Source: Candidatus Pacearchaeota archaeon (GTDB lineage Archaea; Nanobdellota; Nanobdellia; Pacearchaeales; GW2011-AR1). Taken from it: a stretch of DNA of 64,000 nt. The translations under genes and the position numbers were made by a program. Location of the stretch: the NCBI GenBank assembly GCA_049511795.1, contig JBEKXS010000001.1:58514-122513 (forward strand). The letters run 5' to 3'. The notes under the pieces were generated by a model. The model made no database searches and was not told the DNA's origin. It was given only the letters and a program-made list of their open reading frames with translations. Below, one piece after another: positions 9,896 to 44,617 of this stretch. Position 1 is the first letter of the stretch; every line of letters begins with the position of its first letter.

Positions 9896-9967
9896 GGCGG
9901 TTGTAGTATAATGGCAGTACGTGCGGTTGTGGTCCGCAAGAAGAGAGTTCGATTCTCTCCTTCCGCC
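9896..9967 (+). tRNA. tRNA-His (GUG) with encoded G-1:C73. Acceptor stem carries two U-U mismatches.
   Basis: Cloverleaf folded by hand. D-stem GTAT/GTAC with GG in the loop. Anticodon arm TGCGG-TTGTGGT-CCGCA. T-arm GAGAG-TTCGATT-CTCTC. Extra 5' G pairs with discriminator C. Lies immediately upstream of hisS. Confidence 0.55.
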
Positions 9968-9987
9968 CTTGATATAAAGAGAATAAA

Positions 9988-15515: not shown

Positions 15516-16430
15516 TTAGTCAGCCATGTCGCCAAGAGGCTTGTCAAACTTTTCATTAATCTCATAAAGCCTTTCTTCTTGCTCTTCATCAAGGTTTTCA
15601 ATTTGCTCTTCAAGCTCTTTTTTTAGCTCTGCATAAGGGTCAGGGTTGTTTTTAAAATAAGTTTCATTCATCCAGATGTCAAAATCATTGAACTGGCTCT
15701 GTTGTTCCAACCAAACCTTGTTTTGATGGTCAAGATGAAGCAAAGGAGAAAATGAAACAATCCTGTCATCTTTTTTTGTCCCGACAAAATCAGTGAATGA
15801 AATCTTTGTCTTGCTGTTGTCTTTGCTGAAGTAATCAACAAGCTTTTCATAAAGCTCTCGGATTTTGTCTGTTATATTGAATTTTCTGTGGGGCATGGAA
15901 ACATCGACTTCCCTGAGCGCGTTCTTGTTCACAATTTCTTTTTTTATTCTTCTGTTTTCTGTTATAATTGCCTTGTTAAGGGAATCCATAAGCTCCTGCA
16001 AAGTAACTCTTTTGAATCTTGGCATAGGGCTTTTTGGAACAAGCTCTGGAATGAATTCATCAAGCTCAATCCTCTCCATTTCATATTTTTTCTCCTCTTT
16101 TCTCCCAAACAAGATGTCGTCAATTGATTTTATGTATTTGTTGAGAAGAATTTCTGATTTAATTCTCAAAAGAAGAGCTGCTGCAAGAAGAACTTTGCTT
16201 GAAACAAAGAAATCAGCCTCTTCAAGGCTCTTTATCTTGTCAAGATATTTGTCTGTGAGGGTAACTATGTTTATGTTCCATGGGTCAAGCTGCTCTGTAT
16301 TGATAAGATCATAAATGATTTCCTGCCAGCCGATTTCCCTGCTGAAAAGCAAGTCGTGAATTTGCTCCTGCTTTACAGAAGGCTGGGCAGTTTTTTCAAC
16401 TTCCCCATCTTTTTGCACTCTTTTTTCCAT
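15516..16430 (-). CDS. scpA: Segregation and condensation protein A (ScpA kleisin)
   Basis: N-terminal pattern ...LDPWNINIVTLTDKYLDKIKSLEEADFFVSSKVLLAAALLLRIKSEILL is typical of ScpA. Confidence 0.6.
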   Translation of the reverse strand: MEKRVQKDGEVEKTAQPSVKQEQIHDLLFSREIGWQEIIYDLINTEQLDPWNINIVTLTDKYLDKIKSLEEADFFVSSKVLLAAALLLRIKSEILLNKYIKSIDDILFGRKEEKKYEMERIELDEFIPELVPKSPMPRFKRVTLQELMDSLNKAIITENRRIKKEIVNKNALREVDVSMPHRKFNITDKIRELYEKLVDYFSKDNSKTKISFTDFVGTKKDDRIVSFSPLLHLDHQNKVWLEQQSQFNDFDIWMNETYFKNNPDPYAELKKELEEQIENLDEEQEERLYEINEKFDKPLGDMAD

Positions 16431-16486
16431 GTAATCAATATAATAAACAGGAACTTATAAATTCTATTAAGCTGAAATATAATTGT

Positions 16487-16614
16487 GTAGTGCCTAACTT
16501 AAATATGTTGTAGTACCTACATATAGCTCTGCACGGAAATAGGCTTAGATTTCGTGCAAAGTCACCTACATATATTCAGTGTAGTGCCTGAAATGTTTAT
16601 TTGTAGTACCTAAA
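16487..16614 (+). repeat. Two ~40-bp direct repeat units, each containing GTAGTGCCTAA and GTAGTACCTA half-sites about 21-23 bp apart. A ~9-bp hairpin (16531..16559) lies between the units.
   Basis: Copies at 16487-16497, 16511-16520, 16582-16590, 16604-16614. Reverse-complement copies at 42462-42472 and 42485-42495. Confidence 0.6.
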
Positions 16615-16824
16615 GAACCCAGATACAGAATTAATTAATTACTACTCTAGGTTAATCAATGGATGTCATTTTTCAAGAGTAACAGAGACGAAACATTTAA
16701 ATATGAGCAGGACGTCAGGTTTTTATCACCTCTTTTTCCCCAGGAGACGCTTCAGACCACACTAATTTAAGAGGCCTGAAGCACTCCCGAGGGTTCATAA
16801 TCGATTTAGAAAAAATTGATATTG

Positions 16825-16868
16825 CGGGCTTATTAAGATTCAGTATTTTTATTGATTGCTTGCCCGCG
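16825..16868 (+). terminator. Element E2, a near-copy of E1 (GCGGGCTTATTAAG...GCTTGCCCGC), followed by GATTTTTTAT. Terminator-like hairpin.
   Basis: Shares GGGCTTATTAAG and TGCTTGCCC blocks with 1856..1895. Followed by a T-run. Sits at the end of a 488-bp ORF-free region. Confidence 0.3.
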
Positions 16869-16918
16869 TGATTTTTTATCACAACAAAATTTTAATACAT
16901 TCAATTTAGAAAATAATA

Positions 16919-17197
16919 ATGACAGAAAGCCATTATTCTGAAGCAGAACGCAGAGATTTTAGCAATATAATAGAAGCAACTGAAAAATGCTATGCTGCAC
17001 AAGTAAAACAAGGTTATTGGTGGTATACTAATTGCACAAAAGATGAGCTCGAAAAAGTTAAACAAAAAGTGGTTGCAGATGGTCTCGAATTTATTGTTGG
17101 GAACACTGCTTTTGAGAATTTAATTAAAGGTAAAACGATGAAAGGAAAATGCGCTGTTTTAGTAAGGAAAAAAAGAAGAGAGAGTAGATATCCGTAA
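16919..17197 (+). CDS. Hypothetical protein
   Basis: 92-aa ORF. Confidence 0.3.
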   Translation: MTESHYSEAERRDFSNIIEATEKCYAAQVKQGYWWYTNCTKDELEKVKQKVVADGLEFIVGNTAFENLIKGKTMKGKCAVLVRKKRRESRYP

Positions 17198-20883: not shown

Positions 20884-20954
20884 GGGTGCGTAGGCTAGTG
20901 GTAGACTACCTGGCTCCAGCCCAGGAGATGGGGGTTCGATTCCCTCCGTGCCCA
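20884..20954 (+). tRNA. tRNA-Trp (CCA)
   Basis: Acceptor GGGTGCG/CGTGCCC with two G-U pairs. Anticodon arm CCTGG-CTCCAGC-CCAGG. T-arm GGGGG-TTCGATT-CCCTC. Discriminator A. D-stem is weak. Promoter box AAAAGCTTTTAAAAA lies 25-35 bp upstream. Confidence 0.6.
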
Positions 20955-38198: not shown

Positions 38199-38273
38199 GG
38201 CTCCGTAGCTCAGCATGGATAGAGCACCGGACTTTTAATCCGGGTGTCGTGGGTTCAAATCCCATCGGGGCCA
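38199..38273 (+). tRNA. tRNA-Lys (UUU)
   Basis: Perfect cloverleaf: acceptor GGCTCCG/CGGGGCC, D-stem GCTC/GAGC, anticodon arm CCGGA-CTTTTAA-TCCGG, T-arm GTGGG-TTCAAAT-CCCAT, discriminator A. Confidence 0.8.
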
Positions 38274-38339
38274 TTCTGTTTTTCTTTGTTTTCTCTTAGG
38301 TATACAAATACTTTTAAATAAAAAAAAGTAAATAAAATA

Positions 38340-38621
38340 ATGTCTTTTGAAATAAAACCATTTGGTAATGGTAAAGGTTTTGGTTACAGAGTGGTGAGAG
38401 CAGATAATGGTGCATGGACAGAGTCTTATGTTTTTGCAGAAATTATAGACAATCGTTATGTTTTAAGCTGGAATAATGGTCTGTCTCATGGAAATTTTAG
38501 AGATTTGGGGTTAAATGAAAGAAACGTTGCTGATACAAGTCTCTGGCGCAAAGCGGAAGAATTGTTGGAAGAAAAAATAAAAGAAGAAGCTGTTTTATCT
38601 GGAAGCCATAGCAAAACTTAA
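38340..38621 (+). CDS. Hypothetical protein
   Basis: 93-aa ORF just downstream of tRNA-Lys. Confidence 0.3.
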   Translation: MSFEIKPFGNGKGFGYRVVRADNGAWTESYVFAEIIDNRYVLSWNNGLSHGNFRDLGLNERNVADTSLWRKAEELLEEKIKEEAVLSGSHSKT

Positions 38622-38645
38622 AAGTAACTTATTCGATACTAATTT

Positions 38646-39056
38646 ATGCATAAGAAAAAAAAGGTGTGGATTTCTGTCATTGTGATTGTTGCAGCGATTG
38701 TCATATTATACTTTGTATTAAAAAGTCCACAAACAGGAACAAATGTAAATAATAACAATGAGAATGCTTCTGCTCCAAATCAAAATGCTCCATCTTCTGC
38801 AAGCACACCAAAAACAAATTTAGCATTATATTATAATCTTGACTGGCAAAAAGATTATATTGACAAGCCGAATAATATTGTTTCAATTTCTATTTCAGGA
38901 AATTACAACGCGATAAATATAAGCAGCCAGACAGAAATTTCACAAGTAACACTGAGCGGAACAAACAACAAAATAACATTCTGCAACAGCACATATCCTG
39001 CGCCTGTAATAAACAAAATCGGAATCAACAACGTAATAAATTATGTTGTCTGCTGA
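38646..39056 (+). CDS. Membrane-anchored or secreted Asn-rich hypothetical protein
   Basis: N-terminal TM/signal helix, Asn-rich linker. Confidence 0.3.
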   Translation: MHKKKKVWISVIVIVAAIVILYFVLKSPQTGTNVNNNNENASAPNQNAPSSASTPKTNLALYYNLDWQKDYIDKPNNIVSISISGNYNAINISSQTEISQVTLSGTNNKITFCNSTYPAPVINKIGINNVINYVVC

Positions 39057-39152
39057 TTTTTTTCTTAATAGTATAATTTAGTCGCATAATGCTTTTAAAT
39101 AAAATTCCCTTATGTTCTCTATCGGATTTTTTGGTAAATCCATTATAAAAAA

Positions 39153-39410
39153 ATGAGGGTTTTGCTTGAAAGTATTGTTGTTAATGGTATGAAGTTGTAT
39201 GCCCCTATTTCTCAAAATGGCGGGAACTACTCAGCATTAATTGGCAGAAAATTTTATGTATGTGAAAAAAGCAAGAAAGGCTACACAATAAAGGGTGATA
39301 ATTTAAGGGCCGCGATGGTTGGAGATGACCCTTTCTTTCCGGGAAAAGAAGATGATGACAAAGACAAAAGAGTAATTTATGATGCAGTTCCTGAACTGGT
39401 ATCCCCTTAA
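39153..39410 (+). CDS. Hypothetical protein
   Basis: 85-aa ORF. Confidence 0.25.
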   Translation: MRVLLESIVVNGMKLYAPISQNGGNYSALIGRKFYVCEKSKKGYTIKGDNLRAAMVGDDPFFPGKEDDDKDKRVIYDAVPELVSP

Positions 39411-39520
39411 GGGAGTTTTTTCATGATTTTTGGCAAATTCCTCTAAATCGCGACGGGACAGGGTTCTGTAAAGTTATCGGTTGGTAGAAAAGGTTAAAAG
39501 TTGGGATTCTTTAGAATTTT

Positions 39521-39703
39521 ATGGTTACGCCGAGCAGGGTTAGGATGAACAAATTAAGGCATAAGCACGGAATGATAGCCAAAGAAAAACAGGCAGAAAA
39601 CGAAGAAAATAAGTCTTGGAGAGAAAGAAGTTCTAAATCAATATCTCAAGAAGAACATCAAGAAAGACTAAATAAACTGAAAGAAATTGGATTATTAAAA
39701 TGA
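39521..39703 (+). CDS. Small highly charged protein, translationally coupled (ATGA) to the downstream gene
   Basis: 60 aa, K/E/R-rich. Its stop overlaps the start of 39700..40338. Confidence 0.3.
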   Translation: MVTPSRVRMNKLRHKHGMIAKEKQAENEENKSWRERSSKSISQEEHQERLNKLKEIGLLK

Positions 39704-40338
39704 GTGAAAGTAAAGCAAAGGCAAAACTGAACGGAGATGTAATAAAACTACCCCTTAGTTTTTCTCAAGGCAGTATTAGGGTAGCAGACAATAAAGGAAA
39801 TCACTTTCAAAAACCAACACAGCAAATTATGGATAAGGAATTGTATATTGAATGGATGATAACTAATGATGAAATTAAATTGTTGTCAAAACTTATCCCC
39901 AAGAAAAATATAGGAGATTTGATAAAAGTGTTACAAAGAATAAATAAGTTTGCAGAAGCAACGAAATATTCTAAAAGAGAATCAGATAGAGGAGAAAAAG
40001 TTATTGCTGAATTTGAGGGCTTTAAGATATATCATTATACAGATGATTTTAATTCTTTTGAGAAAGTTCTTGGTTCTACATTAAAAGTAAGATTAACATT
40101 TAAGTTAGGAGATTATGGTGTTACATCCCATCCTCATATGTATGTTCTTGTCCCATTCAATTTTAAGACATTAAAAATAAAAAATATCTCTGGGAATGTT
40201 AAGATAGGAGAACCTCTTGGAAAAAAGTGTTTTGCAGAACTAAATTTGACAGAAGAAGAACTTAAAGAGATAATATTAACACTTGCTCACGCTTCAAGTA
40301 ATCATAGAAATGATTTGATTAAAGTTCTTGAATCCTGA
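39700..40338 (+). CDS. Hypothetical protein, candidate restriction endonuclease partner of the adjacent methyltransferase
   Basis: Convergent with, and overlapping by 20 nt, the 3' end of the MTase gene. No clear catalytic motif. Confidence 0.25.
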   Translation: MSESKAKAKLNGDVIKLPLSFSQGSIRVADNKGNHFQKPTQQIMDKELYIEWMITNDEIKLLSKLIPKKNIGDLIKVLQRINKFAEATKYSKRESDRGEKVIAEFEGFKIYHYTDDFNSFEKVLGSTLKVRLTFKLGDYGVTSHPHMYVLVPFNFKTLKIKNISGNVKIGEPLGKKCFAELNLTEEELKEIILTLAHASSNHRNDLIKVLES

Positions 40339-41455
40339 AATCCAAAACATCATTTTTCTTTATTGACTTACTGCCTACTCTATGGGTTATGTTTCTAAAA
40401 TGTTCTAAATTCTTATTAAGGGCTTTACAAACAGATTCTTTTATCTTTTTATTGCTATTGAACTCATCTTTAAATTTAAAGACAAAAAACATATCATTCA
40501 AAACATCTTCTTTGACATTAATTAACCCTGATTTTCCCACGCTTACATTACCCACTCTTGTAACTGCAAGAGCATAATCCTTAACATCTTTTTCTTTTGG
40601 TATTTCTTGGTGTTGTAAAATGTTAGCCCCTGAAATATTGTTTTTTGTATAATCTCTTTGATAATGGGCTTTTTCATTAGATAAGAAATCAAATAAAGGT
40701 TTTCCTTCTTGATGGTTTTTTATTTTGTATAAAAATGTTTTTGGGATTAATTCTTCTGTTAGTAATAGATTTTTGTCTAAAACTTCTTTAACATTCTGTC
40801 CATCTTCATAAAGGATTATTATTTTATCTCTGAATTTATCTATATTTGTAAAGATAGCAAAACAGCAAGGTATAGGTTCTTCAACCATATTCTTACTATT
40901 CTGATAAATTATTATTGTGCTAAATCTGTTTATGATTTCTTTCTTAACTTCTTTATTTTTCTTTGCTATGAAAAAGGAGATAGGCAAAACAAAAGCTATA
41001 CTTGAATTTTCATCTTTAAGATGTTTTATAGATTTCAAAATAAAAGCATTTTCTATTTGAACTTTCTCTTTTTTCTTGAAGGATTCTGTTAAATAATCTT
41101 CATTATTCTTATACTTCTTTGGGAAAAAATAGCTGTCTTTGACATTATATTTTGTAAATGGTGGATTTCCTATAATCAAATCAAACTTTTTATCTAAATC
41201 AAACAAAAAGAAATCACAGGGCTTACTTGTCAGATTCTCATCTATTTCACACTCTTGAATATTGTTAAAACCCTGCTCTTGCATTCCCTTTACAAAGTTT
41301 CTTGTCCCTGCTGATGGTTCTAAAACATTTATATCTCTATTGTAATCTTTATATTCTAAAAGAAGTCTAATTACTCTATCAACAACATTTCTTTTAGTGA
41401 AATATTGTCCCCAAACAAATTTCTTATCGCCCATATCTATTTTATGCTTTGACAT
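40319..41455 (-). CDS. N6-adenine DNA methyltransferase (gamma-class, TaqI-like order: motif I then IGNPPF) with C-terminal target-recognition domain
   Basis: Motif I VLEPSAGTRNF. Motif IV IGNPPF. About 180-aa C-terminal variable domain. The annotated start lies 3 nt from the transposase stop, so the real start may be the internal Met at about 41434. Confidence 0.6.
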   Translation of the reverse strand: MSKHKIDMGDKKFVWGQYFTKRNVVDRVIRLLLEYKDYNRDINVLEPSAGTRNFVKGMQEQGFNNIQECEIDENLTSKPCDFFLFDLDKKFDLIIGNPPFTKYNVKDSYFFPKKYKNNEDYLTESFKKKEKVQIENAFILKSIKHLKDENSSIAFVLPISFFIAKKNKEVKKEIINRFSTIIIYQNSKNMVEEPIPCCFAIFTNIDKFRDKIIILYEDGQNVKEVLDKNLLLTEELIPKTFLYKIKNHQEGKPLFDFLSNEKAHYQRDYTKNNISGANILQHQEIPKEKDVKDYALAVTRVGNVSVGKSGLINVKEDVLNDMFFVFKFKDEFNSNKKIKESVCKALNKNLEHFRNITHRVGSKSIKKNDVLDFRIQEL

Positions 41456-42505
41456 TTTTTAACTCTTTTGACTTGCTAAGTATATCAAGTCAAGCCATTT
41501 ATTTTTCCCAAGATTAAGATTAACCCCTGCTTGTTCAATAGGAGTTTTATTTATGCCTTGATGGATTCTTATAAAATTGTAATAAACAACAAACAAAGAC
41601 AAAATAGCTTCTGCACTTTCAGGGCTTTTGAAATTTCTCATAACCTTGATTCTTGCCCTGATAGTACCTTGTATTCTTTCTATTATGTTATTTCTTCTGT
41701 CTTCACTTGCTTTTAATCTTGTATAAACTTCTCTATCTAATTTTCTGTTTCTTGAACCCCAAACTTTTCTATATGCTTTCTTATAAGCAAAAGCTGAATC
41801 TGTGAATAATGATAATGGTTTATTCTGTGCTTTGAAGAAAAGCATTTTAGCACTCTTTGTATCTCTTTTTGTTGAGTAATGAGAAGAAACCAAAACTCTT
41901 GTTTCCTTATCTATCATATCCCAAAAATAATGCTGTTCATTCTTACATTTAACAAAAATCTCATCTGCGTGATAAATTCTTGAAAGATTTAAGTCAAATT
42001 TTCTCTGAAAATCTTTTAACAATATAGCATATCTTCTTATCCAGTTTAGAACAGCTTGATGGCTTACTTGATAATCTGAAAACTGGTTAAAATGCTCTTT
42101 GACTTTTCTTAAACTCAACCCATTCATATAAAGAGAAACGCACTGGGTTATTACTTCTCTTTTGTGCTTTGTTTTGAAGAAACCATCATCAACCACAAAA
42201 CATTCAGAACAGGAATTACATTTCCATCTTTGCTTTTTTGTGGTATGGTTGAATCTGAAACCCCACTTAATAACTTCTTCAGATTTACAATAAGGACAAA
42301 CCTTCGGCTTGATAACCGAAACTAATTTATAGTTCTGTGTCTTCTGATTTTCGTTATTCATTTTGCGATGGGTAACCTGCCCTTCGGGGCAGTCATATTT
42401 ATTTGTATAAATATTAGATTAGTAAATAACTAATCTATTTAAATGTTTCTATGAGAAGTAATTAGGCACTACAATTCACTATTATTAGGCACTACAACAA
42501 GGGGA
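41400..42505 (-). mobile_element. IS6-family insertion sequence. Exact ends not resolved. Region bounded by the MTase start and GGCACTACAA repeats.
   Basis: Transposase ORF. Upstream GC-rich UUCG hairpin (42377..42392). IS26-IR-like GGCACTACAA copies at 42465..42474 and 42488..42497. Confidence 0.35.
41459..42361 (-). CDS. tnp: IS6-family DDE transposase with N-terminal zinc-ribbon
   Basis: CPYC...CNSCSEC zinc finger. YHADEIFVK, DKETRVLVSSHYSTKRDTKSAKMLF, FTDSAFAYKKAYRKV and RNFKSPESAEAILSLFVVYYNFIR blocks parallel the IS26 Tnp26 blocks WHMDETYVK, DSRGRTVDFYLSSRRNSKAAYRFL, NTDKAPAY, GFKSMKTAYATIKGIEVMRAL. Confidence 0.7.
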   Translation of the reverse strand: MNNENQKTQNYKLVSVIKPKVCPYCKSEEVIKWGFRFNHTTKKQRWKCNSCSECFVVDDGFFKTKHKREVITQCVSLYMNGLSLRKVKEHFNQFSDYQVSHQAVLNWIRRYAILLKDFQRKFDLNLSRIYHADEIFVKCKNEQHYFWDMIDKETRVLVSSHYSTKRDTKSAKMLFFKAQNKPLSLFTDSAFAYKKAYRKVWGSRNRKLDREVYTRLKASEDRRNNIIERIQGTIRARIKVMRNFKSPESAEAILSLFVVYYNFIRIHQGINKTPIEQAGVNLNLGKNKWLDLIYLASQKS

Positions 42506-42696
42506 GAAAGTGTCATAAATATCTGTTCGGCAAAAATCTCGTCAGATTCTTTCCTTAATTTTTTATTAAGAAATTTATCAAGTTTTTTCTGATAGTTTGG
42601 AATATCTATGCCGTACTTTTTATCAAATTCATTAGTAAGTTCAATAATTTTTTCCCTCATTTCTACAACCTTCAAGTCATTTTCTTTCCAGTTCAT
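42469..42696 (-). pseudogene. Truncated hypothetical gene (75 aa) whose C-terminus is encoded by the GGCACTACAA repeats. Probable remnant of the partner of the upstream AbrB-like gene.
   Basis: Start overlaps the stop of the AbrB-like ORF (ATGA). The last 12 codons read through both repeat copies. Confidence 0.3.
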
Positions 42697-42851
42697 TTTT
42701 TCTTTTTCTCCTTTTCTGTTTTCCTGATTTTTACTTCAAGAATATCTCCAAGTTCCAAGCCCAATTTTTCTATTGTTTCTATTGGAATCGTAATTACTTT
42801 GGAACTACCCCCATCCCTGATTTTTGCGTCAAATTGGCTTTCAGTTTCCAT
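42696..42851 (-). CDS. AbrB/SpoVT-MazE-like small DNA-binding protein (antitoxin-like), 51 aa
   Basis: Hand-translated: METESQFDAKIRDGGSSKVITIPIETIEKLGLELGDILEVKIRKTEKEKKK. Swapped-hairpin AbrB-type pattern (GSSKVITIP...LGL..GD.L). Confidence 0.4.
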
Positions 42852-42955
42852 AATATATCTTAAACCTTTTTTAACAAGATTAAATATACATTTGACTATA
42901 AAAAACTTGTGTTTTTACAAAAGATTTAAAAGTAGTCATTTACTAACCTTTCTAT

Positions 42956-43216
42956 ATGGCAAAGGCAATACCAAAGTGGGTACAAGAAAGATTGTCAAGA
43001 CTTTGGAAAAAATATGAGGGGAAAGACATAACATATGAAAATATAGAAAAAACTTTGACTATGGATGATAAAAATACAATAAATGCTTTTTTGAATGAAC
43101 TCAAAACAGCAGGATGGATAGAAGTTAAATCAAATGAATCAGACGCAAGAAAGAAAATATATATTTTAAAATCTCCAAGCGTGGTTATGTTGGAAATAAA
43201 AAAGGAAGAAAAATGA
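42956..43216 (+). CDS. Winged-helix DNA-binding protein
   Basis: 86 aa. ...INAFLNELKTAGWIEVK... recognition helix plus wing. Translationally coupled (ATGA) to the downstream gene. Confidence 0.4.
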   Translation: MAKAIPKWVQERLSRLWKKYEGKDITYENIEKTLTMDDKNTINAFLNELKTAGWIEVKSNESDARKKIYILKSPSVVMLEIKKEEK

Positions 43217-44331
43217 TAATACACGATGTTATTACTGAGGCAGTTGATAAAGATTCAAGACTGGTTTTGAAAAGAATAAAAACTTCTGAAGGAGATTTTT
43301 CAAACAGAAAACTTGCTATTACAAACTTTATGTATAATTGTGAAAGGGACAGGATGAAATATGGACAACCATTATTTAATGGAATTTTCCAAACGTGTCA
43401 TATCAGATTTGATAGGATTCTTAATGACTGGGATTATCTTGGGCTTGAAAACTCCAAAAAACACGCACAGAAAAACAATCGTATATTTTTGCCTTACAAA
43501 CAAAGAAATGAAGAACAGCTATCCCAAATGAAATGGGAAAATTCTGTTAGCGATTTCAATACTATGGTTGGAAAGGTTGATAATGTTCCATTTGTCCTGC
43601 CTCTTTATGCAACCCTTAATGATTGGAAAAAATACAGGGCAAACGCTATTTCAATATTAAACCAAAATCAAACATTAATTCCTATAATCTCATCAAAGCA
43701 TAATGTTTCACATTTTCCAACAATAATAAAATATGAAAAAGGAAAAGATAATCTTATAGGGATAAATTCTTATGAATTGAGTGACATAACAGAAAGAACA
43801 AACCTTTCATATTTGAGAGCAATAAACAGCGATACAAAAACAGGTGATAAAACTTCTTTATTTGTAAATTTCAATTATCCAAGAATCCTTACAAGATTAT
43901 CAAATATCGCTGGTTCTTTTGCATTTACTTGCTTTGCAGGAGATATTTTTTCTGAAAGAGCAAGTTTCCCACAAGGAATGAAAAGAGAATCTGTTAATCT
44001 TATGTTTGACAGAAAGCCAGAAGAATATTCTTTTTATGATTCTAAAGAAAAGAAATTCAATAAATCCTTGCCTCAGAAAGAATGGTATGGTGTTGATTTA
44101 ACCAAAAGTTCTATGGCTAACGTTTCAGTTCTTCACGGATTAAGTGGTTATCAAGTAATAAAATGTTTAAGTCACATTAAACAACAAGATGATTTAGATT
44201 TAATTAATGCTTTAATATTGAATCAGCAAGATGTTTTGAAATTTATGAAAAATTATACTGGTTGGAGTGTATTCTTAGACAGAATGGTTATCCCATCTTC
44301 ACAAACGCAACAAACCCTCTTAAAATTCTAA
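43213..44331 (+). CDS. Hypothetical protein (372 aa), no recognisable domain
   Basis: Good coding structure. No motif matched from memory. Confidence 0.35.
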   Translation: MIIHDVITEAVDKDSRLVLKRIKTSEGDFSNRKLAITNFMYNCERDRMKYGQPLFNGIFQTCHIRFDRILNDWDYLGLENSKKHAQKNNRIFLPYKQRNEEQLSQMKWENSVSDFNTMVGKVDNVPFVLPLYATLNDWKKYRANAISILNQNQTLIPIISSKHNVSHFPTIIKYEKGKDNLIGINSYELSDITERTNLSYLRAINSDTKTGDKTSLFVNFNYPRILTRLSNIAGSFAFTCFAGDIFSERASFPQGMKRESVNLMFDRKPEEYSFYDSKEKKFNKSLPQKEWYGVDLTKSSMANVSVLHGLSGYQVIKCLSHIKQQDDLDLINALILNQQDVLKFMKNYTGWSVFLDRMVIPSSQTQQTLLKF

Positions 44332-44617
44332 TAGTCACGTGACACAAGGAAAAAACATTAAGGGGTTGCTTGTTCTTTCCAAGCAAGTAAATCCCTTAAT
44401 GCCTTCTTAAAAATATTAATTTTCCATTCCTTTTAAACTTTTATTCAATTTTCACCAACCGAAGATTTGACAGAACCACGGGACAGAAACATTTTTAAAC
44501 CAAATTTTGATATCTTTTATTATTGATGAGTTGTCAAAACTCTTCTGGAAAGTGCCTAAAACCCCCTGCCAGAAAAATTAAATTCACCGTCGGTAACTGT
44601 CTAAAACTGCCAAAAAT

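Follow-up and report, generated by a model that had tools for sequence, protein, structure and literature searches.

A widely distributed small RNA family of DPANN archaea with an invariant 5' tail

The intergenic region upstream of scpA

The DNA analysed here, a stretch of 64 kb from a Candidatus Pacearchaeota archaeon that is called the window in the following, contains at positions 16431-16918 an intergenic region with a gene on the + strand that is in all probability a genuine, conserved gene for a small RNA (sRNA). Pacearchaeota are placed in DPANN, NCBI kingdom Nanobdellati. The window has a GC content of ~35 % and a coding density of ~93 %. In a gap model composed of a greedy set of open reading frames (ORFs) of at least 50 aa and three tRNAs, the region was with 488 nt the largest unassigned gap, followed by one of 286 nt, and the initial annotation had rightly singled it out as the longest coding-free stretch of a packed genome. 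Its neighbour on the - strand, 15516-16430, encodes ScpA (Pfam PF02616). The surrounding genes are housekeeping genes, among them those for IMP dehydrogenase, diphthamide synthase and RpoE/Rpb7; Spt4, S24e, S27 and an Fcf1-like PIN protein are encoded nearby as well as RNA polymerase subunits, EF-2 and ribonucleotide reductase.

Folding of the segment 16720-16885 yielded a minimum free energy (MFE) of -48 kcal/mol (z = -5.6), and none of 200 shuffled sequences folded equally well. The palindrome GCTTCAG...CTGAAGC recognized by the initial annotation has its arms at 16749-16758 and 16773-16782 and belongs, as the upper helix, to a structure of 71 nt (16725-16795; MFE -22.5, z = -3.2 against shuffles). 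The GC-rich hairpin that had been labelled E2 was also found, with the arms GCGGGC...GCCCGC and GATTTTTTAT behind it (MFE -15.1, z = -3.7 against shuffles). A third hairpin of ~9 bp, proposed for 16531..16559, exists with a shift of one nucleotide: UGCACGGAA (16530-16538) pairs with UUUCGUGCA (16550-16558) at an MFE of -10.1 kcal/mol (z = -2.7). The initially stated positions deviate by one or two nucleotides at most. A simple bacterial terminator scan reported nothing in the gap because the loop is longer than the limit of the scan. The features of the region are compiled in Table 1.

Table 1 Features of the intergenic region and of a related promoter elsewhere in the window
Feature	Position	Strand	Remarks
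scpA TATA box TTTATAAG	16455..16462	-	25 nt before the ATG of scpA (15516-16430)
Direct 11-bp boxes TGTAGTRCCTA	16486-16496, 16509-16519, 16580-16590, 16602-16612	+	22-23 nt spacing per pair
Hairpin	16530..16558		9 bp, between the two box pairs
Promoter-proximal block ATTACTACTCTAG...TGTCATTTTTCAAGAGTAACAG	16638..16686	+	directly upstream of the B recognition element; conserved in the aligned upstream regions
B recognition element CGAAACA and TATA box TTTAAATA (16696-16703)	16689..16703	+	columns invariant or nearly so in 62 aligned loci
5' tail AUCACCUCUUUUU	16725..16737	+	invariant columns; single-stranded, predicted unpaired in 168/175 versions
Core hairpin	16738..16795	+	base CCC-A-GG / CC-YA-GGG conserved, then UU; apical part variable
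Hairpin hp2, AUCGAUUU-AGAAA-AAAUUGAU	16800..16820	+	small hairpin with A-rich loop
Module X (E2 hairpin)	16824..16867	+	GCGGGC/GCCCGC clamp, 5-nt bulge UUAUU, AU-rich upper helix
T6 run	16872..16877	+	likely archaeal termination signal, in GATTTTTTAT after the E2 hairpin
Two boxes GTAGTGCCTAA, 23 nt apart, with identical B recognition element/TATA GAAACATTTAAATA	42436..42496	-	upstream of an IS6/IS240-family transposase gene

Conservation and distribution

Eighty loci from other genomes, with ScpA proteins 62-87 % identical to that of the window, served as comparison set (individual loci are cited by L numbers). Eight further contigs with an identical ScpA had an intergenic region that was 100 % identical; they carried no covariation signal and hence were not informative. 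With 16686-16890 as query, nhmmer detected matches to the segment 16686-16800 upstream of scpA, on the opposite strand, in at least 63 of the 80 genomes (E values from 1e-26 to 1e-3). A single copy of the string ATCACCTCTTT was present in the window and in each of 76 of the 80 loci. An exact-pattern scan of metagenomes with ATCACCTCTTTTTNCCCAGG yielded at least 120 contigs. Two GC-rich matches, L101 and L143, had neither promoter nor hairpin and are probably unrelated, which leaves at least 118 contigs. Three contigs with the RNA were obtained from IMG/VR. A total of 175 distinct versions of the core RNA was collected; the RNA-bearing samples, ~200 contigs, originated from groundwater, peat, lake and marine habitats. 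A description of the RNA was not found in the literature, also not with the literal sequence as query. The promoter geometry, the conservation, the structure and its strand, the unpaired tail and the absence from Rfam very probably define a new, widely distributed small RNA family of DPANN archaea that comes with a promoter, regulatory boxes and a second conserved hairpin module.

Promoter and structure of the core RNA

The promoter CGAAAG/C-TTTAWATA was invariant in the aligned loci and was followed by ~22 variable nucleotides before the tail. In the window, the last base of CGAAAC-A-TTTAAATA lies 22 nt ahead of A16725. The TATA 8-mer began 28-29 nt upstream of the first A of the RNA in 158 of the 175 distinct versions. 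In Nanoarchaeum equitans, box A is located 26-27 nt before the mapped transcription starts, and T-stretches end transcription (PMC3491384). From this geometry we infer that the locus is transcribed from the + strand and that A16725 is the 5' end of the primary transcript. A TATA-like box at the matching distance also precedes the mature 5' ends of all three tRNAs encoded in the window (9897-9968, 20884-20954 and 38199-38273). It ends 23-25 nt before these ends, which would place the start of tRNA transcription at +1 or next to it, and the genes look leaderless. The same arrangement of tRNA promoters is present in N. equitans, an archaeon without RNase P. An RNase P RNA was not detected in the 64-kb window with Rfam 15.

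The structure of the core was derived with RNAalifold from an alignment of 74 distinct cores. It comprises 15 pairs, and 98.8 % of the cells formed standard pairs. Cells with both partners changed were observed 189 times, compared to 46 ± 6.5 in column shuffles, and sliding the 3' partners by 1-3 columns lowered the pairing to 23-62 %. Compensatory changes were seen in all eight pairs of the upper helix, GCUUCAG(ACC)/(GGC)CUGAAGC in the window. About 11 % of the paired cells (~121 of 1110) were G-U or U-G. On the opposite strand these would be A-C mismatches; the structure therefore belongs to the + strand, in agreement with the orientation of the B recognition element (BRE). A covariance model of the core, R1, gave 77 strong single matches, one per locus (67-94 bits), with weak antisense echoes only. 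The suggestion of a structured non-coding RNA (ncRNA) locus in the initial annotation is thus borne out by the BRE and TATA box, the covarying hairpin and the + strand conservation in ~200 contigs, and covariation in many genomes extends to the E2 hairpin.

The relatives share a fixed layout: promoter, ~22 nt, (T)ATCACCTCTTTTTNCCCAGG, hairpin and CCYAGGGTT. Between CCCAGG and CCYAGGGTT, the hairpin has a length of ~20 to ~100 nt. Most common are RNAs of 66-79 nt; short versions have stems of ~20 nt with tetraloop caps and a total length of 44-54 nt, and long versions of 110-125 nt carry an apical AGUA/GAA motif that is bulged-G-like. Constant in all versions are the tail of 13 nt, the CCC:GGG helix, the internal loop A/YA and the UU that follows. 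The median pairing probability predicted for the tail was 0.001. An invariant unpaired tail next to a variable hairpin reads as the signature of a functional single-stranded site shown on a scaffold.

Seven of the long versions (L113, L125, L128, L129, L136, L177 and L197; 110-125 nt) have in common the apical sequence UGAGUAG-[hairpin]-CGAAGUAAU, which resembles the bulged-G or loop-E module and may be a protein-binding extension. Locus L182 contains two tandem copies of the RNA. The first is located ~60 nt 5' of the main copy and has the altered helix base CCC-A-CGC...GCG-A-GGG, which leaves the tail, CCC/GGG and the two A residues as the only strictly conserved elements.

Three other readings of the core were rejected. 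Protein-coding ORFs (16663-16770, +; 16715-16882, -) are incompatible with indels that are not multiples of three, a hairpin of variable length and covariation including G-U pairs. A - strand RNA or a 5' untranslated region (UTR) of scpA conflicts with the ~11 % G-U pairs, with a BRE pointing the other way and with the scpA TATA box only 25 nt from the ATG. A pseudoknot or triple helix of tail and hairpin does not fit a constant tail, predicted to be unpaired, beside a hairpin of varying sequence.

Hairpin modules downstream of the core

In many genomes the core is followed by hp2 and then by module X. The distance of hp2 to module X is fixed in the relatives and its stem sequence differs among genomes. 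Module X consists in general of a GGGC:GCCC clamp, a 5-nt bulge UUAYU and an upper helix. This architecture was present in 44 of 51 distinct versions, and the upper helices were different in all 51. Module X was always located on the same strand as the core and downstream of it, at +86 to +1854. Core, hp2 and X are contiguous in the window and end in the T6 run. Oligo-T terminators have been described for Nanoarchaeota (PMC3491384). A transcript of core, hp2 and X, which is probable here, would be ~153 nt long and end at ~16877, a 3' end that, like the transcription start, is deduced from sequence signals; X may also be a unit of its own. In the initial annotation the E2 hairpin had been taken for an intrinsic-terminator-style end. 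The run of T is indeed there, but the hairpin with its fixed 5-nt bulge is a conserved structured module and not merely a terminator.

Downstream of the core, nine loci (L010, L016, L017, L027, L028, L036, L040, L066 and L074) contain another hairpin, Y, with the sequence AGUCGUGG/AAGUCGUGG...CCACGC followed by AUUAUAUUCA. It is found between core and X, after X or in place of X. The architecture of Y resembles that of X, and core, X and Y are each trailed by a similar A(U/A)UYAUAUU motif.

The downstream ORFs of the window (92 aa and 113 aa) had weak homologues in 3 of ~200 RNA loci, and the next gene after the RNA was convergent or a different one in most relatives. A leader or riboswitch of the 92-aa ORF 16919-17197, one of the identities put forward initially, is rejected on these grounds.

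Regulatory DNA between scpA and the RNA gene

Not the entire 488-bp region is the RNA locus that it was initially taken for: one part is the RNA gene, and about half (16431-16703) is promoter and regulatory DNA, with a first hairpin that is not conserved. The sequence GGAACTTATAAAT around the scpA TATA box is conserved in relatives. A conserved TATA box at 25 nt from the ATG suggests that scpA is probably leaderless. The DNA between the two promoters (16486-16688) is regulatory DNA common to the RNA gene and the divergent scpA. nhmmer conservation spans 16580-16686; other lineages have TAACTAC-type half-sites in the position of the promoter-proximal block.

Besides the four direct boxes (Table 1) a degenerate fifth one is present near 16558-16568. 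The window contained eight box matches where 1.7 were expected, and none of 100 shuffles reached eight. In the related loci (740 kb), 100 of 103 box matches shared the strand of the RNA and preceded it by no more than 330 nt. Two boxes per locus are usual; 30 of the 80 related genomes have none. Among the metagenome contigs, boxes were present in 26 of 61 with scpA as divergent neighbour and in 1 of 39 with another context. The boxes are therefore specific for lineage and context and stand outside the universal RNA gene. They are probably binding sites of a DNA-binding protein. The hairpin 16530-16558 was missing at the corresponding place in the closest relative, L009, and in other relatives; it is species-specific and probably incidental.

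A box pair together with the promoter GAAACATTTAAATA recurs upstream of the transposase gene (Table 1), which suggests a shared regulator or a copied promoter. The two box-neighbouring proteins, each of 300 aa, are unrelated, one being ScpA and the other an IS6 transposase; a kinship was rejected. The transposase gene is part of a low-GC island, ~38300-44600 (GC 0.28-0.31), that directly follows a tRNA-Lys gene. The island encodes the IS6/IS240-family DDE transposase (41459-42361, -), an Eco57I-like methylase (40319-41455, -) and several small unassigned ORFs, and is probably an integrated mobile element. Farther downstream, two adjoining genes on the - strand code for ice-binding-like domains (PF11999; 56142-57848 and 57968-58927).

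Mode of action

As a whole, the observations are best explained by an independently transcribed sRNA that would act in trans via a 5' seed, an explanation to which we assign a probability of about 0.5. The segment 16725-16795 would be the core of this ncRNA, which probably extends via hp2 and X to the T6 run. The functional site would be the invariant, pyrimidine-rich 5' tail AUCACCUCUUUUU, displayed by a hairpin that is fixed only at its base (CCC-A-GG / CC-YA-GGG-UU). An invariant unpaired tail with a hairpin of ~20-100 nt is the pattern expected of a seed with its scaffold. Characteristics of 5'-seed sRNAs were observed in the family: 158 of the 175 versions have the promoter at a constant spacing, the tail is invariant, and it is predicted to be single-stranded in the 168 versions named in Table 1. 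The tail begins with eight nucleotides, AUCACCUC, that are identical to what we take to be the 3' anti-Shine-Dalgarno (anti-SD) tail of 16S rRNA. The seed might pair with purine-rich, SD-like sequences (...AAAGAGGUGAU...) and might thereby compete with the identical 16S 3' tail at the minority of cistrons that are SD-led. Masking of ribosome-binding sites by archaeal sRNAs has been described (PMC5867862). SD motifs of the AGAGGTG type were found 10 times within 25 nt of start codons and not once further upstream, and AAAAGAGG 12 times near starts as opposed to two occurrences further upstream. Both would form more base pairs with the tail of the sRNA than with that of 16S rRNA. That the seed pairs with SD-like sites is a tentative proposal, less likely true than not.

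At the gene starts of all loci analysed, SD motifs were rare and often AGAGGUG rather than GGAGG. Recurrent examples precede rps27ae and a gene, located after a tRNA, for a low-molecular-weight phosphatase-like protein.

Several results weigh against the pairing of the tail with SD-like sites. A 16S rRNA gene was not present in the ~1.5 Mb of DNA analysed, and the identity of the tails is a presumption. The 8-mer complement GAGGTGAT was essentially absent outside the RNA gene itself (~13 of 90 occurrences in 804 kb) and never stood upstream of genes, so an SD sponge with full 8-mer targets had to be rejected. The SD motif as such is rare: GGAGG preceded 3-4 % of the genes, and 43 % of the long ORFs had a TATA-like box at -35 to -15; many genes look leaderless. 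The SD of the neighbouring rps27ae was dismissed as a conserved target: it is not complementary in all cases, and the closest relative L009 has none. No conserved target was detected in ~1.5 Mb of flanking DNA. Finally, the invariance of 13 nt over distant lineages and in copies on mobile elements argues for a universal partner, protein or rRNA, instead of assorted mRNAs. Such a partner could be a protein that recognizes the 16S 3' end or a U-rich strand beside a helix, and would fit the invariance equally well or better.

In a second reading, the RNA may be a protein-binding mimic of the 16S 3' end, in which the tail (AUCACCUC and U5) together with the hairpin would bind or titrate a factor whose usual ligand is the 16S 3' tail or a U-rich single strand, for instance Nob1, a Dim2/Pno1-like KH protein or an Sm-like protein. 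Its role would be in the maturation of the small subunit or in a small ribonucleoprotein (RNP) and would not involve base pairing to mRNAs. The 13 nt that are invariant in 175 versions from unrelated contexts speak for it, as do the lack of a complementary target and the fixed helix base with its conserved A/YA internal loop beside the U5 tract. The recurrent linkage of the RNA to the rps24e/rps27ae-rpoE-PIN(Fcf1-like) cluster, even in the absence of scpA, points in the same direction, but may just reflect conserved gene order. Moreover, the match to the 16S tail comprises only 8 nt and was noticed post hoc. We consider this explanation rather improbable, though second in rank after seed pairing; a cassette platform and a replication origin, treated below, are unlikely. 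A bolder version is correspondingly more doubtful: a dedicated 16S 3'-end mimic across DPANN (Nanoarchaeia-type) that is copied by mobile elements and would work as guide or decoy of a small RNP (Sm-like/U7-like or Nob1/Dim2-associated) in subunit maturation or as a global gate on SD-dependent translation in organisms with predominantly leaderless mRNAs, the gene doubling as attachment (att) site.

Integration sites and mobile elements

In three relatives, inserts with small ORFs, 0.3-1.6 kb in length, were flanked on either side by copies of the last 17-33 nt of the core. In L049, the 33-nt sequence CCTAGGGTTTRAACTTTTGCTTAAAAACCCTCGG was present in two copies ~0.9 kb apart. L160 had three copies of the 17-nt sequence CTCCCAGGGTTATAATC and two modules X, and L096 is another case of a duplicated RNA 3' end. 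This pattern is that of an att-like integration hot spot at the 3' end of the RNA gene, and such insertions explain the variable gene content downstream of the RNA. The downstream ORFs of the window itself were not flanked by a pair of 3'-end repeats.

Some copies of the RNA have a recombinase-like or primase-like ORF in their vicinity or are located on predicted viral contigs. L136 contains a tyrosine-recombinase-like ORF 2-3 kb upstream of the RNA, and its divergent neighbour is a winged-helix-like ORF of 324 aa. In L125, which equals L209 in IMG/VR, the RNA is followed by a D5-like primase/helicase ORF. The predicted viral contigs of IMG/VR with the RNA are L125/L209, L210 and L211; one of the copies is a minimal 44-nt version that ends in T8 and lies between two genes.

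About a dozen genomes have variable small ORFs behind the core, in the same orientation, and module X occurs downstream of such inserts. Together with the 3'-end repeats around the inserts in L049, L160 and L096 and with the copies near the tyrosine-recombinase-like ORF and on IMG/VR contigs, this might indicate a cis element in which a strong promoter, a structured leader and an att site form a platform for small gene cassettes, with the RNA product being secondary. However, in most loci the RNA is not followed by an ORF on its own strand, but by a convergent gene or only by X or Y; an integrase is missing near the window copy, and it is not obvious how the invariant 5' tail would serve recombination. 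tRNA genes, too, are targets of integration without being platforms. The chances of this explanation are accordingly small.

A further reading is a replication origin or partition site at 16486-16612, with the boxes as iterons beside scpA and the RNA as an origin-proximal transcript. The boxes are direct repeats with a spacing of two helical turns, specific to the intergenic region, and the region adjoins a segregation gene. In L113 and L136, a box resembling the origin recognition box (ORB), TGTTTCCAATGGAAACGTCGGGGTGTGGGGGT, is situated about 80-105 nt upstream of the long RNA variant, and this ORB-like box at ~100 nt could be read in favour of an origin. On the other hand, orc1/cdc6 or another initiator gene was not present within ~10 kb, neither an ORB consensus nor an inverted arrangement nor a long AT-rich stretch for unwinding is present in the window, and the GC skew tracks gene orientation only. 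The RNA also persists where the boxes do not, as in 30 of 80 related genomes and in nearly all contexts that lack scpA. An origin is therefore very unlikely.

Comparison with known RNA families

At gathering thresholds, the search of the whole window against Rfam 15 retrieved three tRNAs only, and a permissive scan of 16300-17050 (to E = 10) gave nothing below E = 8; the covariance-model check proposed in the initial annotation thus assigned the RNA to no known family. Scans of 27 divergent loci, with short and long homologues, revealed only tRNAs and noise, ARAGORN detected nothing in the gap, and the sole snoRNA match had E = 10 and was on the opposite strand. RNA of the signal recognition particle (SRP), another of the three identities suggested at the outset, had no Rfam 15 match with the window copy or with divergent homologues; the apex is the most variable region, without the GNAR of helix 8, and versions of 44-54 nt contrast with ~300 nt. 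RNase P RNA (archaeal types A, M and T) was rejected for the missing Rfam match and for invariant columns without GAGGAAAGUCC or ACAGAA...GGCUUA, the conserved regions CR-I and CR-V. The boxes RUGAUGA, CUGA and C'/D' of C/D sRNAs are missing from the conserved columns of the 74 aligned sequences. In the case of box H/ACA RNAs, the internal loops (1x2 and 2x2) provide no pseudouridylation pocket, and the 3' flank is an invariant GGGUU instead of ACA. Due to their length, the 44-54 nt versions are too small for SRP RNA, RNase P RNA and 5S rRNA. Among the three initial suggestions, a lineage-specific sRNA is the one that fits. Although reduced DPANN genomes often carry RNAs missed by standard models and a length of ~153 nt is close to that of the H/ACA RNA of N. 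equitans, with 159 nt and two hairpins (PMC3491384), a divergent member of a universal family (SRP, RNase P, C/D, H/ACA, 5S or tRNA) is hardly credible in view of the failure of Rfam 15 below E = 8 and of ARAGORN, the small versions and the lack of C/D boxes, pocket and ACA, and the same holds for chance hairpins with a terminator, excluded because core and E2 hairpin show conservation and covariation across genomes.

Significance

The genomes of DPANN archaea are tiny and contain hardly any spare DNA, and ncRNAs beyond rRNA, tRNA and guide RNAs are almost unknown in them. A single-copy gene with 13 invariant nucleotides and a strict helix base that is present on ~200 contigs and kept on putative mobile elements is unlikely to be dispensable. 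Through the anti-SD-like tail, in a lineage that rarely uses SD motifs, translation initiation or 30S biogenesis of these uncultivated organisms becomes accessible to experimental tests. Metagenome-assembled genomes can be annotated with the covariance model and the motif ATCACCTCTTTTTNCCCAGG, and the duplicated 3' end, as a new integration hot spot, is useful for locating mobile elements of DPANN archaea.

Comparison with known systems

The H/ACA guide RNA of N. equitans (159 nt, two hairpins; PMC3491384) has a similar length, several hairpins, its own box A and a T-stretch in common with the RNA described here, which in contrast has no pocket (loops of at most 2x2), no kink turn in the common form and no ACA. 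tRNA and tmRNA genes that serve as att sites are comparable in that the 3' end of the RNA is duplicated around inserts in relatives and the downstream content is variable. However, the RNA is not tRNA-like according to ARAGORN, and neither an integrase nor a repeat pair was seen around the downstream ORFs of the window. U7 snRNA and related RNPs of the Sm class share the architecture only, a 5' single-stranded guide with CUCUUU, a U-rich tract and a terminal hairpin; U7 is eukaryotic, and the likeness carries no sign of Sm-like binding or of a processing target here.

With the presumed 3' tail of 16S rRNA (...GAUCACCUCCU-3') the RNA has the eight nucleotides AUCACCUC in common, single-stranded in both molecules. 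In the sRNA they are located at the 5' end of a ~70-nt molecule, are followed by U5 instead of CU-3', and precede the hairpin, which in 16S rRNA stands before the tail.

The best counterparts of a trans-acting RNA with a 5' seed are the enterobacterial RybB and OmrA/B as well as sRNA41 and sRNA154 of Methanosarcina mazei, which mask ribosome-binding sites (PMC5867862). They bear no sequence relationship to the RNA of the DPANN archaea, whose seed stays unchanged over a much wider phylogenetic range, whose host rarely uses SD motifs and whose copies occur also on putative mobile elements. Shared with them are a stand-alone gene with its own promoter, a conserved single-stranded 5' end on a hairpin scaffold, a U-run, and a pyrimidine-rich seed like the anti-SD.

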